A stretch of DNA of 6,492 bases from a virus (lineage: Duplodnaviria; Heunggongvirae; Uroviricota; Caudoviricetes), in IMG/VR virus record IMGVR_UViG_2645727640_000047, positions 1-6,492 of that record; one strand, written 5' to 3'. The notes under the pieces were generated by a model that saw only the letters and a list, made by a program, of their open reading frames with translations, searched no databases and was not told the origin of the DNA. Position numbers and translations under genes: made by a program. Positions within the stretch are counted from its first letter, which is position 1, and each line of letters begins with the position of its first letter. This document shows positions 1 to 6,492 of the stretch, one piece after another.

Positions 1-35
1 CTGTTATAAATATCTTTTATATCAGTATATTATAG

Positions 36-204
36 GGTGAACAGTTATTTATGAACTGTTCACCAAACTATTCACTGTTCACCTTTTTGATTGTTTATTG
101 AGCTTCAAGGGTGAACAGTGGTGAACAGTTGGTGAATAGTTTTTGTGAAACTGTTCACCCCTTAACATTATGAATTAAAAGATAAAATATCAAAAGGTGA
201 ACAG
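36..204. repeat. Iteron cluster of a P4 alpha-type replication origin (ori/crr-like): octamer TGTTCACC in both orientations
   Basis: Seen in sequence: TGTTCACC at 57-64, 76-83 and 152-159; its reverse complement GGTGAACA at 36-43, 110-117, 120-127 and 196-203; one degenerate copy GGTGAATA at 131-138. An AT-rich stretch at 161-195 could be the unwinding element. Established knowledge: TGTTCACC is the type I iteron bound by the phage P4 alpha primase-helicase at ori and crr. Confidence 0.7.
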
Positions 205-301
205 GTGAAGGGTTAAAACGCAAAAATTTTAATTTACTGCTGTGAGATAAAGCCTATGACAGCGAAGCACATAAAAAAAATCACAATCGCACGCCCTTGA
301 T

Positions 302-502
302 TTGACGGAACACTGGTTAAGGGTGTCGATAAAAATCATCGACCGCAACGCCGGGGAAGGATATGCGAAAGCACATCCCGAACTGATTAGCGCATTCATG
401 ACAACGGCAGCTGCAAACTTTGCCACGCTGACAGAACGGGAGATTGCCGAAGCGGAACAGGTGACAACCATCAACGTTAAAACCGGAGAGCAGACAGCAT
501 GA
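302..502 (+). CDS. Hypothetical small protein; start uncertain (TTG 302, GTG 323 or ATG 398, all in frame)
   Basis: ORF in the track; its TGA stop (500-502) overlaps the ATG (499-501) of the next gene in an ATGA arrangement, suggesting translational coupling. No family recognised. The antisense ORF 229-474 is judged less likely because the plus-strand genes form a coupled operon. Confidence 0.35.
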   Translation: MTEHWLRVSIKIIDRNAGEGYAKAHPELISAFMTTAAANFATLTEREIAEAEQVTTINVKTGEQTA

Positions 503-921
503 CAGCACAGATAGCGGCTTACGGGCGGCTGGTGGCTGACCCGCAGTTAAAGACCACCAGCAAGGGTACACAAATGACGATGGCGAGTATGGCGGTCCCA
601 CTTCCGTGCAGCCAGGCAGATGACGGAACGGCGACGATGTGGTTATCCGTCCTGGCGTTTGGCAGACAGGCCGAAGCACTGGCAAAGCACCGCAAGGGTG
701 AACTCCTGAGCGTGGCGGGTAACATGCAGGTGAGCCAGTGGACCGGACAGAACGGGGAGACGCGGCAGGGCTGGCAGGTTATCGCAGACAGCGTAATCAG
801 TGCGAGAACGGCGCGACCGGGCGGCAAAAAAGGCCAACAGGGGCAGGCTACTGATGCACTGAGCAGAGCAAAACAACAGGCGGGAAATGATGATCCGTAC
901 GGGGATAACATACCGTTTTAA
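499..921 (+). CDS. ssb: Single-stranded DNA-binding protein (SSB family), 140 aa
   Basis: The translation has an OB-fold-like core (VLAFGRQAEALAKHRKGELLSVAGNMQVSQWTGQNGETR, compare E. coli SSB [39 protein letters not shown]), a Gly/Gln-rich linker and a C-terminal tip DDPYGDNIPF (compare E. coli SSB DFDDDIPF). A GGAGAG Shine-Dalgarno lies about 9 nt upstream, and a terminator follows. Confidence 0.75.
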   Translation: MTAQIAAYGRLVADPQLKTTSKGTQMTMASMAVPLPCSQADDGTATMWLSVLAFGRQAEALAKHRKGELLSVAGNMQVSQWTGQNGETRQGWQVIADSVISARTARPGGKKGQQGQATDALSRAKQQAGNDDPYGDNIPF

Positions 922-936
922 GCAACGAGTAACAGA

Positions 937-959
937 AGCCGGAGCAATCCGGCTTTTTT
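937..959 (+). terminator. Rho-independent terminator after the ssb-like gene
   Basis: Stem AGCCGGA (937-943), loop GCAA, stem TCCGGCT (948-954), followed by a T-run through 959; it sits 16 nt after the stop codon. Confidence 0.6.
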
Positions 960-977
960 ATGGGTCCTCCCGGTGTA

Positions 978-1186
978 GTGACCTGCCACGGGGCGGGAGC
1001 GGCGCGGAAAAAGGCTAGTTTTTGCATTTTCATTCGTCATCATCATCTTTCTATAATGTTGAATTTTAAGTGTTTTTATTTTTGGTATGTTAATTTTGCT
1101 TGTTTTGTGTTCAACATACAGCGCGTTTTTTGACCTTTTTTAAAAGATATTTGCAAGATGCATTTTTAAAACATTCTGGAGCGGGT
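978..1186 (+). promoter_or_regulatory. Candidate lambda-like cos region (cosN-like 988-1003, AT-rich cosB-like 1020-1180) upstream of the Nu1-like gene; contains a perfect TATAAT at 1052-1057
   Basis: ACGGGGCGG at 988-996 is identical to the 9-mer that, as recalled, spans the lambda cosN nick (right end ...TTACG joined to left end GGGCGGCGACCT). It lies about 196 nt upstream of the Nu1-like ATG at 1187; lambda Nu1 starts at nt 191. TCGTCAT and GTTTTTATTT motifs recalled from lambda cosB also occur (1034-1040, 1072-1081). The right half of the putative cosN differs from lambda (GAGCGG versus CGACCT). Confidence 0.4.
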
Positions 1187-1672
1187 ATGGATCGGGAACT
1201 GAAAAATCTGATGCTGAACATTAACCAGCTGGCGGCGATAGCGGGAATATGTCGCCAGACTGCGGCGGCAAGGCTGAAAAATATCCAGCCAGCCGGAGGA
1301 CATGACAAGCTGAAACTCTATCGGGTGACTGACATTCTGACTTGTTTTCTTGATCTTCCCGTTCCGGCATCACTGGAAGAAATGGAGCCACACGACCGTA
1401 AGGCCTGGTATCAGTCCGAACGTGAGCGCCTCAAGTTCGAACAGGAAACGGCGCAACTCATACCCGCCGATGATGTGCGAAAAGAGATGGCTATATGGGG
1501 AGAAATCGTAAGCGAGGAACTGGAAAAACTCCCCAGTATTCTGGCACGTGATGTTGGGCTTAAACCGATGGCAGTAAACAGAGTGCAGTCAATTATTGAC
1601 GATTTGTGTAATCAGATTATCAGCCGGATGGTAAAAAATGACGTAGTGAATGAGGTCGCAAAACAGGCATGA
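1187..1672 (+). CDS. Nu1-like terminase small subunit (N-terminal HTH), 161 aa; start set at the ATG with a GGAG Shine-Dalgarno rather than the track's TTG at 1100
   Basis: The N-terminal LNINQLAAIAGICRQTAAARLKNIQPA matches the lambda gpNu1 HTH pattern VNKKQLADIFGASIRTIQNWQEQGMPV (Q-L-A-x-I-x-G-...-T-...-P). The size is similar (161 versus 181 aa). A GGAG lies 8 nt upstream of ATG 1187. The gene sits downstream of the cos-like sequence as in lambdoid phages. Confidence 0.55.
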   Translation: MDRELKNLMLNINQLAAIAGICRQTAAARLKNIQPAGGHDKLKLYRVTDILTCFLDLPVPASLEEMEPHDRKAWYQSERERLKFEQETAQLIPADDVRKEMAIWGEIVSEELEKLPSILARDVGLKPMAVNRVQSIIDDLCNQIISRMVKNDVVNEVAKQA

Positions 1673-1956
1673 TAATGACCGAATCTGAAATACTGCGATT
1701 AATCCGCTGTGCTGGTGGAATTAGCCAGTTGGCTGACGAACAGGCCGCGCAGCCGGATACAGTCACCGCTGAAAATTACGCGCGTGTGGTGGCTGAGGTG
1801 ATGCGCCGTGACGGTATTGAGCTTAACGGCGTGGATATGCGCAACATACGAACCAGAGTCCTTGAGTTGCTGGCATACCGTCGCCGTTCTCAACAACGGA
1901 GGGAGAGCGCGAAAAATACTTATCAGTGGAAGAAGCCGGAATGGTTGCGGCGGTAA
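1669..1956 (+). CDS. Hypothetical 95-aa protein translationally coupled to the Nu1-like gene; weak resemblance to the N-terminal segment of lambda gpA (terminase large subunit)
   Basis: Its ATG (1669-1671) overlaps the upstream TGA (1670-1672). The N-terminus MIMTESEILRLIRCAGG...QPDTVTAENYA loosely parallels lambda gpA MNISNSQVNRLRHFVRAGL...PQTAVEWADANYY. It occupies the position that terL holds in lambdoid phages but is only 95 aa. Confidence 0.45.
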   Translation: MIMTESEILRLIRCAGGISQLADEQAAQPDTVTAENYARVVAEVMRRDGIELNGVDMRNIRTRVLELLAYRRRSQQRRESAKNTYQWKKPEWLRR

Positions 1957-2001
1957 TTTGTTGATATTCCTGATAGCGCAAAAGTGCGTTGGCTGGTGGG
2001 T

Positions 2002-2021
2002 GAGTTGCAGATCTGCAACTC
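2002..2021. repeat. Perfect 20-bp palindrome GAGTTGCAGATCTGCAACTC with a central GATC
   Basis: The reverse complement is identical to the forward sequence. It lies 46 bp after the stop of the last island ORF. Either a dimeric-protein operator/recognition site or a hairpin; the central GATC is a Dam site. Confidence 0.5.
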
Positions 2022-2040
2022 GACCATGAAATTACGGAAA

Positions 2041-2223
2041 CTACCCGTAGTTTGGGTAGTAAGAGTAACACCCAGATTTTGGGGCTTACTCGCGATACCC
2101 AAATAAAGGGTATCTGTGGAAGAAATATCGTTTCTCATATGTGAGTACCGAGGGCGGAATTCCGCCTTCGGTTACTTATTGTGCTCATGCACAGGGAGGG
2201 GCGGGTCAAATCCCTGTGACCTG
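2041..2223. other. Non-coding cluster of inverted repeats / hairpins at the right border of the inserted element
   Basis: CTACCC...GGGTAG (2041-2059); GATACCC-7nt-GGGTATC (2094-2114); perfect 14-bp palindrome GGCGGAATTCCGCC (2153-2166) extended by wobble to ACCGAG/TTCGGT (2147-2172); CACAGGGA-13nt-TCCCTGTG (2190-2218). Contains GGGGCGGG (2198-2205) and GTGACCTG (2216-2223), both also present at 978-997. No credible ORF. Confidence 0.45.
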
Positions 2224-2362
2224 ACGTCTTCCGGACTGCCAGCCCCATCGATTTTTTATACCCGCGAAAAATGAAAAACGCTTCACGCTGGTGGGCCTGA
2301 TGCCGATAACTGGTTTCATGACTGATAGCCGGAAAATGATAACGATTAAAGCGTGTTGATCT

Positions 2363-2419
2363 TTGTTCGTGGTTGTTCGATATTGTTCGTGGAACGGTGT
2401 AGTTAATGGTGTAGTTAAT
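2363..2419. repeat. Direct repeats: TTGTTCGTGG (2363-2372, 2383-2392; partial TTGTTCGA 2373-2380) and tandem GGTGTAGTTAAT (2396-2407, 2408-2419)
   Basis: Seen directly in sequence. The arrangement resembles arm-type recombinase or regulator binding sites next to an integration junction; the function is not established. Confidence 0.4.
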
Positions 2420-2592
2420 TTTACTGTTTTTGACGAGCTTATTGTTTGCAACTCAATGAAAAATAAAGGCTAATAAGCCAAATGCTATAAATGATAGTTA
2501 TCTATCATGTGGAGTAGATTGGTCAGGCAAATAAGCTCTTGTCAGCGGCAGGGCGTTCTGCCGATAACCGTAACCGAAGATGATAACTGACA

Positions 2593-2913
2593 ATGGGTAA
2601 AACGAACGACTGGCTGGACTTTGATCAACTGGCGGAAGAAAAAGTTCGCGACGCGCTAAAACCGCCATCTATGTATAAAGTGATATTAGTCAATGATGAT
2701 TACACTCCGATGGAGTTTGTTATTGACGTGTTACAAAAATTCTTTTCTTATGATGTAGAACGTGCAACGCAATTGATGCTCGCTGTTCACTACCAGGGGA
2801 AGGCCATTTGCGGAGTCTTTACCGCCGAGGTTGCAGAAACCAAAGTGGCGATGGTGAACAAGTACGCGAGGGAGAATGAGCATCCATTGCTGTGTACGCT
2901 AGAAAAAGCCTGA
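2593..2913 (+). CDS. clpS: ATP-dependent Clp protease adaptor ClpS, 106 aa
   Basis: The translation [51 protein letters not shown]... matches E. coli ClpS as recalled; there is a 30-bp gap to clpA, as in K-12. Confidence 0.96.
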
Positions 2914-2943
2914 ATGCAGGCATAAAAATTGGGGGAGGTGCCT

Positions 2944-5220
2944 ATGCTCAATCAAGAACTGGAACTCAGTTTAAATATGGCTTTCGCCAGAGCGCGCGAG
3001 CACCGTCATGAGTTTATGACCGTCGAGCACTTGTTACTGGCGCTGCTCAGTAACCCATCTGCCCGGGAGGCGCTGGAAGCGTGTTCTGTGGATTTGGTTG
3101 CGCTCCGTCAGGAACTGGAAGCCTTTATTGAACAAACCACACCCGTTCTGCCTGCCAGTGAAGAGGAGCGCGACACACAGCCGACGCTGAGTTTTCAGCG
3201 TGTACTGCAACGTGCGGTCTTCCATGTCCAATCCTCCGGTCGCAATGAGGTAACCGGTGCAAACGTTCTGGTCGCTATCTTTAGCGAACAGGAGTCGCAG
3301 GCGGCATATCTGTTGCGTAAACATGAAGTCAGCCGTCTCGATGTGGTGAACTTTATCTCTCATGGCACGCGTAAAGACGAGCCGACACAGTCTTCTGATC
3401 CTGGCAGCCAGCCAAACAGCGAAGAACAAGCTGGTGGGGAGGAACGTATGGAGAATTTCACGACGAACCTGAATCAGCTTGCGCGCGTGGGCGGAATCGA
3501 CCCACTGATTGGTCGTGAGAAGGAGCTGGAGCGTGCTATTCAGGTTCTCTGCCGTCGCCGTAAAAACAACCCGCTGCTGGTGGGGGAATCTGGTGTCGGT
3601 AAAACCGCGATTGCGGAAGGTCTTGCCTGGCGAATTGTTCAGGGCGATGTGCCGGAAGTGATGGCTGACTGTACGATTTACTCTCTCGATATCGGTTCTC
3701 TGTTAGCGGGCACTAAATATCGCGGCGACTTTGAAAAACGTTTTAAAGCGTTGCTCAAGCAGCTGGAGCAGGACACTAACAGCATCCTGTTTATTGATGA
3801 GATCCACACCATTATCGGTGCGGGGGCAGCGTCTGGTGGCCAGGTCGATGCGGCTAACCTGATCAAACCGTTGCTCTCCAGCGGTAAAATTCGCGTAATT
3901 GGTTCGACAACCTATCAGGAGTTCAGCAACATTTTCGAGAAAGACCGTGCTCTGGCGCGTCGCTTCCAGAAAATTGATATTACTGAACCGTCGATCGAAG
4001 AAACTGTTCAAATCATCAATGGCCTGAAACCGAAGTATGAAGCGCACCACGACGTGCGTTATACCGCAAAAGCGGTGCGTGCAGCGGTAGAGCTGGCGGT
4101 GAAATACATTAACGATCGTCATCTGCCGGATAAAGCCATTGACGTTATCGACGAAGCGGGCGCTCGCGCACGCCTGATGCCGGTAAGCAAACGCAAGAAA
4201 ACCGTTAATGTGGCGGATATTGAGTCCGTGGTGGCCCGTATTGCGCGCATTCCAGAGAAGAGTGTTTCTCAGAGTGACCGCGATACCCTGAAAAACCTCG
4301 GCGATCGCCTGAAAATGCTGGTCTTCGGTCAGGATAAAGCCATTGAGGCGCTGACTGAAGCCATTAAGATGGCGCGTGCAGGTTTAGGTCACGAACATAA
4401 ACCGGTTGGTTCGTTCCTGTTTGCCGGCCCTACCGGGGTCGGGAAAACAGAGGTGACGGTACAGCTTTCGAAAGCGTTGGGCATTGAGCTGCTGCGCTTT
4501 GATATGTCCGAGTATATGGAACGCCATACCGTCAGCCGTCTGATTGGTGCGCCTCCGGGATACGTTGGTTTTGATCAGGGAGGTTTGCTGACTGATGCGG
4601 TCATCAAGCATCCACATGCGGTGCTGTTGCTGGACGAAATCGAGAAAGCGCATCCGGACGTGTTCAATATTCTGTTGCAGGTGATGGACAACGGTACGCT
4701 GACCGATAACAACGGACGCAAAGCGGACTTCCGTAACGTGGTGCTGGTGATGACCACCAACGCCGGGGTACGTGAAACTGAGCGTAAATCCATTGGTCTT
4801 ATCCACCAGGATAACAGCACCGATGCGATGGAGGAGATCAAGAAGATCTTTACACCGGAATTCCGTAACCGTCTCGACAACATTATCTGGTTTGATCATC
4901 TGTCAACCGACGTGATCCATCAGGTGGTGGATAAATTCATCGTCGAGTTGCAGGTTCAGCTGGATCAGAAAGGTGTTTCTCTGGAAGTGAGCCAGGAAGC
5001 GCGTAACTGGCTGGCCGAGAAAGGTTACGACCGGGCAATGGGCGCACGTCCGATGGCGCGTGTCATCCAGGACAACCTGAAAAAACCGCTCGCCAACGAA
5101 CTGCTGTTTGGTTCGCTGGTGGACGGCGGTCAGGTCACCGTCGCGCTGGATAAAGAGAAAAATGAGCTGACTTACGGATTCCAGAGTGCACAAAAGCACA
5201 AGGCGGAAGCAGCGCATTAA
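2944..5220 (+). CDS. clpA: ATP-dependent Clp protease ATP-binding subunit ClpA, 758 aa
   Basis: The translation begins [35 protein letters not shown] and has two AAA+ modules with Walker A motifs ([16 protein letters not shown]). A strong Shine-Dalgarno GGGGGAGG (2931-2938) lies 5 nt before ATG 2944; the track's TTG start at 2929 is not used. Confidence 0.96.
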
Positions 5221-5244
5221 TCTGATTGTTAGGTAGGTTGGTCA

Positions 5245-5280
5245 AGTCCGTAATCTCGAAAGAGGTTACGGACTTTTTGT
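5245..5280 (+). terminator. Rho-independent terminator of clpA (about 13-bp stem, GAAA tetraloop, T-run)
   Basis: AGTCCGTAATCTC (5245-5257), loop GAAA (5258-5261), GAGGTTACGGACT (5262-5274) with one G-U wobble, then TTTTTGTTT. Confidence 0.8.
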
Positions 5281-5432
5281 TTATGGGGTGGAGGAGGTTC
5301 AGACCCTTTTTTTAATGATGATGGTAAGTTGTTGATAATTAGTGCTGCGGGAAGGTAAGGATAAAAAAGGGTGCTGCAGGAGAATGGGATGGTTTTGCTT
5401 TATTAACAACGGGCTAAACGTGTAGTATTTGA

Positions 5433-5520
5433 GTTCACTGCCATACAGGCAGCTTAGAAATCGACGGGGTGCGGTAAAACCTTTGCGAACGCGTTCACTG
5501 CCGTACAGACAGATAAAATG
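5433..5520 (+). CRISPR. Orphan type I-F CRISPR mini-array: 2 repeats, 1 spacer, no cas genes in the window
   Basis: Repeat 1 GTTCACTGCCATACAGGCAGCTTAGAAA (5433-5460); 32-bp spacer TCGACGGGGTGCGGTAAAACCTTTGCGAACGC (5461-5492); degenerate terminal repeat GTTCACTGCCGTACAGACAGATAAAATG (5493-5520). The repeat matches the 28-bp Ypest/I-F consensus GTTCACTGCCGTACAGGCAGCTTAGAAA with one mismatch. An AT-rich leader-like region lies at 5290-5432. The clpA-infA position is the known E. coli CRISPR3/4 (I-F) locus. Confidence 0.85.
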
Positions 5521-5522
5521 CG

Positions 5523-5550
5523 AAAAAAAAGCTCGCACTTTCGTACGAGC
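5523..5550 (-). terminator. Rho-independent terminator of serW (8-bp stem, GAAA tetraloop, U8)
   Basis: On the minus strand the RNA reads GCUCGUAC-GAAA-GUGCGAGC followed by UUUUUUUU; it lies 14 nt downstream of the tRNA 3' end. Confidence 0.8.
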
Positions 5551-5563
5551 TCTTCTTTAAATA

Positions 5564-5651
5564 TGGCGGTGAGGGGGGGATTCGAACCCCCGATACGTTG
5601 CCGTATACACACTTTCCAGGCGTGCTCCTTCAGCCACTCGGACACCTCACC
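5564..5651 (-). tRNA. serW: tRNA-Ser (anticodon GGA), 88 nt including the encoded CCA
   Basis: The reverse complement reads GGTGAGGTGTCCGAGTGGCTGAAGGAGCACGCCTGGAAAGTGTGTATACGGCAACGTATCGGGGGTTCGAATCCCCCCCTCACCGCCA, with the anticodon loop CUGGAAA, a long variable arm and the T-loop GGTTCGAATCC. Confidence 0.95.
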
Positions 5652-5693
5652 AAATTGTTTTGTCGCCTGACCTCATGGGTGGCAACGGGGCGC

Positions 5694-5722
5694 TACTATA
5701 GGGAGTTGGAGTAAAACGGTCA
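5694..5722 (-). promoter_or_regulatory. Candidate sigma-70 promoter of serW (-35 TTGACC, 17-bp spacer, -10 TATAGT, GC-rich discriminator)
   Basis: On the minus strand: TTGACC (plus 5717-5722), 17 bp, TATAGT (plus 5694-5699), followed by AGCGCCCC, as is typical of stringently controlled tRNA promoters; about 40 nt upstream of the mature tRNA 5' end. Confidence 0.5.
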
Positions 5723-5840
5723 AGAAGAATTTTAATGATAATTATTGTTTGCTCATACTGTAAACAAGTTGTGCAGTATATCTACATCGAGACAAGTTAC
5801 GGACTTATACTTCCAAAGTACTTCATACATATCACAAAAT

Positions 5841-5862
5841 AAAAAGGCCGGTTAAACCGACC
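5841..5862 (-). terminator. Rho-independent terminator of infA
   Basis: On the minus strand the hairpin GGUCGG-UUUAA-CCGGCC (plus 5846-5862) is followed by a U-run (plus 5841-5845); it lies about 40 nt downstream of the infA stop codon. Confidence 0.6.
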
Positions 5863-5904
5863 TTTTACTCGTTCTTTCTCTTCGCCCATCAGGCGGTAAA
5901 ACAA

Positions 5905-6126
<222 letters not shown>

Positions 6127-6492
6127 ATCCTCTGGGGTATCACTACCGTAATTTGAACCGGCAAGATAATGCCGAAGTTCTGTAAATAAGTAAAGATTTG
6201 CGCGCTAAATCGCAACAAACAGGTTCGGCACATTACTCCGAAAACACACGGCTAAGCCGCACCAAAAGCGCAACGTATAAGGGAGCGGTGAGATAAACGA
6301 TGGGCGTTACCTGACGCGAAAAATTCCTTATCGGCAGCGGGGTAATGAGCGTAACCAACTCTGCGACCGCAATTATAACACTCTGGGGAGAAATGTGCCG
6401 AAAACATTCATTCTTGTGGTGAAAACAAGGGAAGGTGCGAATAAGCGGGGAAATACTTCTCGGCTGACTCAGTCATTTCATTTCTTCATGTT

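Follow-up and report, generated by a model that had tools for sequence, protein, structure and literature searches.

Within a 6,492-nucleotide stretch of viral DNA (IMG/VR record IMGVR_UViG_2645727640_000047, positions 1 to 6,492; referred to here as the window) lies the right-hand part of an integrated phage satellite that carries its own gene, ssb, for an SSB (single-stranded DNA-binding protein). Its gene order marks the element, which is about 7.9 kb long and inserted between cspD/yljB and clpS, as a Gram-negative phage-inducible chromosomal island (PICI), and its SSB belongs to a lineage that is in practice one of satellites. Judged from family, synteny and conservation, the protein is probably an SSB that plays an accessory part in replication of the satellite and engages host partners by way of its C-terminal tip. 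The gene itself is an ordinary and already annotated one with the correct name in RefSeq: its nucleotide sequence has no differences from those of two RefSeq genomes (loci L001 and L004), where the product is WP_000126661.1, "single-stranded DNA-binding protein". Coordinates of all features are given in Table 1.

An initial annotation, made from the letters alone, had described a 140-residue SSB homologue, to be checked by a profile search and refuted if modelling gave no oligonucleotide/oligosaccharide-binding (OB) fold; the search bears the description out, and the model, which has such a fold, does not refute it. The protein matches Pfam PF00436 (E 7.3e-16, 58.6 bits against a cut-off of 26), with residues 5–99 aligned to positions 4–101 of the 104-position profile, and the NCBIfam family TIGR00621 (ssb; 59.1 bits against a cut-off of 53.95), both above the curated thresholds, and it also matches PHROG 44 (single strand DNA binding protein) with an E value of 4.5e-39. 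The sequences of solved structures in the Protein Data Bank (PDB) that it matches are SSBs only, from Thermus (2.8e-11), Thermotoga, S. aureus, B. subtilis and E. coli (1EQQ, 4e-5). A Shine-Dalgarno sequence, GGAGAG, is located 8 nt 5' of the ATG start codon. Comparisons with six relatives indicate purifying selection, with dN/dS values of 0.11–0.24, and the gene is therefore not a chance open reading frame (ORF); the OB core and the tail are both constrained in the four comparisons in which the tail could be scored, synonymous divergence in the tail being saturated in the other two. Three opposite-strand ORFs (519–911, 317–685 and 643–876) were dismissed because both the homology and the selection signal sit in the plus-strand frame.

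The AlphaFold2 single-sequence model of the protein is an OB barrel of moderate confidence (mean pLDDT 64.7, about 62–83 in the core), with strands at residues 2–11, 17–21, 24–36 and 44–54, a helix at 55–62, and strands at 69–82 and 88–101. The topology is that of an SSB, with the helix between strands 3 and 4, and residues 104–140 form a low-confidence tail (pLDDT <50). When the model was compared with the PDB using Foldseek, the top 50 matches listed were without exception SSBs or proteins like them that bind single-stranded DNA (probability 1.00, E from 6e-8, target TM 0.6–0.76). The protein resembles E. coli SSB (P0AGE0; PDB 1EYG, 1EQQ and 4MZ9) in its predicted PF00436 OB fold, in an L45 loop of equal length, and in a disordered tail that ends in aromatic(-7)-x-D-x-I-P-F, although identity over the OB domain is only 26%. 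We aligned the two with MAFFT, using an E. coli sequence consistent with the 178-residue chain of 1EQQ; three of the four aromatic positions that stack on single-stranded DNA (ssDNA) in E. coli SSB appear to be kept (W54 as W48, F60 as F54, and W88 as W81), and the loop equivalent to that bearing W40 is 3 residues shorter in the satellite protein. Binding of ssDNA and homo-oligomerisation, to a tetramer or dimer, would be expected of a protein of this family.

The C-terminal part of the protein, which ends in ...NDDPYGDNIPF, is 37 residues long, compared with 66 in E. coli SSB, and the initial annotation was correct in noting both a shorter linker and a conserved ...DNIPF tip; in our alignment (A1) P139 and F140 are invariant and I138 is nearly so. 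It had also called the linker less acidic than that of the host, and here a correction is needed. The host linker (residues 113–168) is Gly/Gln/Pro-rich and neutral rather than acidic, with one acidic and two basic residues, whereas the 27-residue satellite linker (residues 104–130) has five K/R and one D and is net basic, so that the real differences are a basic linker and a less acidic tip. Over ten residues the tips read DDPYGDNIPF in the satellite and PMDFDDDIPF in the host, with three Asp against four and an Asn at position -4 in the satellite, yet the register shared with E. coli MDFDDDIPF is retained: an aromatic residue at -7, Asp at -5, and the terminal I-P-F.

The family conserves this tip. 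Most of the 120 closest cluster representatives end in DDPYGD[N/G/D/E]IPF, with DDPYGDNIPF itself seen 49 times and G, D, E or S variants at -4, and in other genera the relatives end more canonically, for instance in FDDEAPF, YDDQIPF or PFDDDIPF. In a 50%-identity library of 1.84 billion proteins there are 345 clusters that match at E<=1e-10 and only 12 at E<=1e-30. Many of the 345 are SSBs of 125–150 residues ending in FDDxIPF, and a short-tailed SSB with an IPF tip is accordingly a common design. These short SSBs from metagenomes and genomes (about 125–150 residues) share the length class and the FDDxIPF-type tips of the satellite protein, but the Enterobacterales satellite clade differs from the distant ones in being a tight sub-lineage with its own variant of the tip.

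Among characterised elements the nearest counterpart is the prototype Gram-negative PICI, EcCICFT073, which sits between roxA and phoQ in strain CFT073 and has lambda and phi80 as known helper phages. Its SSB (WP_000126698.1; CFT073 1384538–1384948) shares with the protein described here 71% identity from end to end, the OB core and the DDPYGD-IPF tip, and differs in being 136 residues long and in carrying the linker allele NRRKTTGTQGNQPPAGG where the SSB described here has KKGQQGQATDALSRAKQQAGN. The two islands share pri-rep, an origin, a small ORF, and an ssb gene with overlapping stop and start codons, and they part company after ssb, where EcCICFT073 has genes for PerC, a capsid-like protein, a head-decoration protein and RppA, and the window has instead a gene for a DUF1441 protein resembling a terminase small subunit (TerS).

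We call the element a Gram-negative PICI because its gene order is the same as that of EcCICFT073, and the claim that the SSB is element-borne is upheld by this placement in a PICI-type phage satellite. The first 2.6 kb of the window are 98.7% identical to a region of E. coli 2017.18.02CC (L001), where the order is cspD, yljB, a tyrosine integrase gene, a Phage_AlpA regulator gene, YlcI/YnfO on the opposite strand, genes for an Icd-like protein, a hypothetical protein, a DUF4222 protein and a 605-residue "DNA primase family protein" that contains the domains D5_N, DUF5906 and Pox_D5, a gap of 290 nt, and then genes for an 81-residue hypothetical protein, SSB, a DUF1441 protein and a further hypothetical protein, followed by clpS, clpA, tRNA-Ser and infA. 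The integrase, Phage_AlpA, icd-like, DUF4222 and replicase genes are read from L001, in which the replicase gene ends 33 nt before window position 1, and the window holds the part from the origin iterons through attR. The island as a whole then runs int, alpA, icd-like, DUF4222, D5/SF3 primase-helicase, iteron origin, small ORF, ssb, TerS-like DUF1441, cos-like segment and attR. This follows the PICI layout of an integrase gene, an alpA-type regulator, pri-rep with an iteron origin and then interference or packaging genes, all running rightward and without genes for lysis or tails. The phrase alpha-primase-driven, which the initial annotation used of the element's replication, is a fair description of a D5/SF3-type primase-helicase, and NCBI annotates the replicase of a relative as "phage/plasmid primase, P4 family". 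Directly 3' of the primase-helicase gene the GGTGAACAG iterons are grouped, with A+T-rich spacers between the groups; published E. coli PICI origins consist of iteron groups around an A+T-rich region (PMC6092414).

The position of ssb within this arrangement is constant. DNA resembling the small ORF and ssb (window 250–950) is present in 1681 of 5426 complete E. coli genomes, at up to six places per genome, and all but three of the 2249 places (2246) are chromosomal. In all ten of the annotated E. coli contexts that we inspected, including the prototype EcCICFT073, ssb follows the replicase gene and origin, lying 200–300 nt 3' of the replicase gene, across the origin. The replicases that precede it are of four unrelated types, namely D5/SF3 (605 residues), "P4 family" (584 residues), an AAA_25 RepA-like helicase (466 residues) and DUF927 (708 residues), in agreement with a published account of "four allelic variants of Pri-Rep" among E. 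coli PICIs (PMC6092414). The modules 3' of ssb are variable: in the window, a TerS-like DUF1441 gene; in EcCICFT073, genes for a capsid-like protein, a head-decoration protein and RppA; in one capsid-forming PICI (L045), the complete head and terminase set; and elsewhere, ProQ-like and PerC genes. We considered the loci in E. coli Nissle and O157 as capsid-forming PICIs and rejected this, only L045 having the full head and terminase set; they are EcCICFT073-type PICIs, because their capsid-like and head-decoration genes are c1499 and c1500 of EcCICFT073 (PMC6092414). The gene directly after ssb is often that of a PerC-family regulator or a ProQ/FinO-family RNA-binding protein (L003 9604–9876, L045 8670–8942, L049 14960–15208, L046 8495–8992 and L047 8484–9020), and the island in the window has neither.

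Relatives of the gene extend well beyond Escherichia. We collected 40 loci from other Enterobacterales genera, taking one genome per species; among these genera are Klebsiella, Enterobacter, Leclercia, Buttiauxella, Pectobacterium, Edwardsiella, Rosenbergiella, Budvicia, Rahnella and Pantoea. Of the 40 loci, 33 have an integrase gene about 3–10 kb upstream (mostly 6–10 kb) on the same strand, and six of the seven that lack one have less than 10 kb of upstream sequence. An Enterobacter-like satellite SSB with 65% identity was also found in an assembly titled Chryseobacterium sp. 18061 (L013; CACSKA010000004.1), which is probably mislabelled or contaminated. Among 50,697 phage records the best relative of ssb is 32% identical, and Escherichia is not one of the ten host genera that contribute most matches. 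A search of 72,556 plasmids gave 112 matching records, of which just 9 reach at least 60% identity. The lineage is thus essentially specific to satellites of the Enterobacterales. A plasmid or prophage origin of ssb was rejected because of where the gene lies and because phages and plasmids lack close relatives of it, and neither is this a leading-region SSB of a conjugative plasmid, nearly all E. coli copies being chromosomal and all ten inspected contexts being integrated satellites. The leading-region Ssb of F-type plasmids and the PF00436-type SSBs of phages are likewise element-encoded, with a bacterial SSB architecture and a host-like tip, but they are not close relatives of the satellite protein, and the setting is different, with ssb placed beside a primase-helicase origin in an integrated satellite rather than in a plasmid leading region. 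Complementation of ssb mutants by plasmid SSBs is established.

We favour a role in replication because the position of ssb right after the replicase gene and origin is invariant. A genomic survey of Gram-negative PICIs had already put "Primase, SSB and DUF5906" into one class of replication genes, which are found together with mapped origins (PMC10111431). On induction of the island by a helper phage, a rightward operon comprising the icd-like, DUF4222 and primase-helicase genes, the small ORF and ssb would be transcribed as far as the terminator-like hairpin that follows ssb; the primase-helicase would melt the iteron origin just upstream, the island SSB would coat the exposed single strands, and its ...D-x-I-P-F tip would recruit host SSB-binding proteins of replication and repair. 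In this way the burst of satellite replication would have a dedicated source of SSB at a time when the host pool is drawn on by helper and satellite alike. Co-transcription with the replicase, recruitment of partners and benefit to satellite replication are what we infer from the arrangement, the first of these because no promoter-like site lies between the two genes and a strong terminator follows; a scan of positions 1–1300 for sigma-70 promoters found none, where 1.4 were expected, and so none between origin and ssb.

Several observations weigh against this interpretation. Two residues of E. coli SSB, W40 and H55, align with C37 and L49 of the satellite protein, in an alignment that is uncertain in the L23 loop, and the tip has fewer acidic residues than that of the host (GDNIPF against DDDIPF). 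From the known contacts of SSB with its partners, a less acidic tip could weaken partner binding. The SSB linker alleles (140, 136 and 141 residues) reassort freely among the replicase types, and this argues against a dedicated partnership of replicase and SSB. The searchable literature yielded no experimental work on any PICI or satellite SSB, and the founding PICI papers do not mention one. The rep gene and putative origin of EcCICFT073 maintained a plasmid in DH5alpha, in a construct whose description does not mention ssb, and deletion of pri-rep from EcCICFT073 reduced transfer about 100-fold, with no ssb mutant reported (PMC6092414). The island SSB is therefore at most accessory, since pri-rep and the origin alone maintain a plasmid in E. 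coli, and as long as host SSB is available, initiation and elongation can probably do without it.

That plasmid replication from pri-rep and the origin does not need the SSB also leaves room for another selected function. One such function is that of a competitor, which would vie with host SSB on ssDNA or for chi, PriA, RecQ, ExoI, RecJ, RecO and other partners, so that replication or recombination would be tilted in favour of the satellite, at the expense of the helper phage or of host repair, and the protein would do more than supply extra SSB capacity. The near confinement of the lineage to satellites would fit such an interference factor, as would a tip that is conserved yet chemically shifted from that of the host and a linker that is basic. 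The gene has, however, a fixed place in the replication module and not in an interference or packaging module, interference by EcCICFT073 has been mapped to RppA (PMC6739421), and no data link the SSB to interference; we regard this explanation as unlikely.

The same satellite-specific distribution raises the question of whether the SSB is concerned with defence, either shielding satellite ssDNA from sensing systems or acting as a decoy or trigger during helper infection. Satellites carry immunity functions, and several recent papers report that phage SSBs activate the defence systems Retron-Eco8, AbpAB, Hna, DARNA and DRT10. Against this, no defence-system gene adjoins ssb in any of the ten contexts, in which the neighbours are PerC, ProQ/FinO-like or packaging genes, and nothing in the SSB sequence points to a sensor or effector, such that a defence-related role seems very unlikely. 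A broader proposal combines these ideas, with the SSB selected, rather than for general service in replication, as a satellite-specific manipulator that out-competes host SSB on ssDNA, retargets SSB-binding proteins by means of its altered, less acidic tip and its basic linker, or shields against or decoys SSB-sensing defences, in Escherichia perhaps together with a translationally coupled small helical protein. It draws on the facts that the lineage is essentially satellite-exclusive, that it is kept with four unrelated replicases, and that pri-rep and the origin replicate without the SSB, and we consider it quite improbable as a whole.

The small helical protein is the predicted product of the ORF immediately upstream of ssb. 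The initial annotation had the SSB coupled to this ORF, and the overlap is real, the ssb start codon and the stop codon of the ORF (500–502) sharing an ATGA at 499–502; the coupling is limited to one sub-clade, and in the window the ORF is frameshifted. In relatives the ORF encodes 80–104 residues (81 in L001), with a variable N-terminus and a conserved core of 66 residues. The window has a run of eight A residues at 271–278 where two near-identical relatives have seven, and this shifts the frame of the 81-codon ORF: the frame from the ATG at 256 stops at 298–300, and the 66-residue core is still open from a TTG at 302. The additional A could be a real mutation that inactivates or truncates the ORF, or else an error in sequencing the homopolymer. 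The product has no Pfam or NCBIfam match, PHROG 1231 is annotated as of unknown function, and all 154 homologues are named "hypothetical"; those with a source name are from Escherichia, Shigella and, in one record, Citrobacter. AlphaFold2 models the product as a helical hairpin (pLDDT 73.5), for which Foldseek found no match in the PDB. Homologues sought beside ssb in other genera were not found, and the ORF is absent from elements with DUF927-type replicases; the pairing of the small ORF with ssb seems confined to the Escherichia clade.

The frameshift in this partner ORF, the truncation of several SSB entries in the databases, and the sufficiency of pri-rep and origin for plasmid replication could all be taken to mean that ssb is a dispensable passenger, a remnant carried along by the satellite without being selected for any function there. 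This is difficult to reconcile with the low dN/dS values, which show constraint on the OB core and the tail wherever it is measurable, with the presence of the gene in close to a third of complete E. coli genomes and at the same position across many Enterobacterales genera, and with its retention in the window's island, itself a deletion variant from which the protease-capsid gene is gone (see below). We regard a passenger as extremely unlikely, and an accessory SSB of the satellite replicon remains our preferred interpretation.

Table 1. Positions of the satellite features in the window.
Feature	Position	Strand	Description
Putative replication origin	36..214	.	11 copies of iteron GGTGAACAG, 6 direct and 5 inverted; repeat families D1-D3, inverted pairs I1-I16
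Small conserved ORF, PHROG 1231	256..502	+	From the ORF list; PHROG 1231 E 5e-43
ssb	499..921	+	ATG start, 140 aa plus stop; SSB of 140 aa
ssb protein parts			Predicted OB-fold core ~residues 1-103; basic Gly/Gln-rich linker 104-130; tip DDPYGDNIPF 131-140
Intrinsic-terminator-like hairpin	934..960	+	10-bp stem, GCAA loop, into T tract, 13 nt after ssb stop
DUF1441/terminase-small-subunit-like, 161 aa	1187..1672	+	PF07278 E 2.3e-35; PHROG 141 E 3.2e-57
cos-like segment	2194..2276 (83 nt)	+	95-96% identity to unannotated genome-end segments of phages ST64B, SfII, 118970_sal3
attR, right end of satellite	2363..2422	+	Direct repeat of attL beside integrase gene in L001

Transcription of the replication module probably ends at the hairpin that follows ssb, whose predicted RNA fold has a free energy of -17.6 kcal/mol (z -3.95), with none of 200 shuffled sequences as stable. 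A consensus terminator scan missed it, which we attribute to extension of the stem having consumed the T tract.

Two features of the region beyond the hairpin hint, by sequence, at packaging by a helper phage. At the level of DNA the DUF1441 gene shares about 76% identity with the TerS genes of phi458, vB_EcoS-569R4 and other coliphages, and it is likely to be the satellite's packaging-redirection gene. We considered whether its product could be an Rpp protein and rejected this, since it has no similarity to EcCICFT073 RppA and no sequence match in the PDB; we retain it as TerS-like, with its role deduced from that resemblance, and the route by which it would hijack helper packaging may differ from the published Rpp mechanism. 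The cos-like segment is probably the cos site of the island, and its resemblance to phage genome ends gives a hint as to the type of helper phage. The right end is marked by a 60-nt att direct repeat, present in L001 at 8536–8595 and 16362–16421, in which the copies are 78% identical overall and nearly identical in the 3' half. This cspD/yljB-clpS site is used by related PICIs in many genomes.

In most PICIs at the cspD/clpS site, ssb and the DUF1441 gene are separated by a further 2.3 kb or so (compared at L050 6433–9233 and L051 6433–9233), encoding a small hypothetical ORF and a 637-residue fusion of a ClpP-like prohead protease with a major capsid protein. The island in the window and that in L001 are without it, and this short form occurs in only 2 of the 5426 genomes; the deletion breakpoint (at about 954) falls in the T tract of the ssb terminator. 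Farther to the right, between clpA and tRNA-Ser, a type I-F-like CRISPR repeat (GTTCACTGCCATACAGGCAG...; Rfam CRISPR-DR4, 45.8 bits) is present in two copies, at 5433–5460 and 5493–5512, 60 nt apart, which form a vestigial array with no cas genes in the window.

As a discovery the gene has little value, as the protein is named in RefSeq, is present in the best-studied Gram-negative PICI, and SSB is listed among the replication genes of PICIs. The finding is of modest value in that about a third of complete E. coli genomes carry a satellite-specific SSB, and it poses the functional question of what a satellite gains from an SSB of its own, whether, for example, in out-replicating its helper or in perturbing the SSB interaction network of the host.

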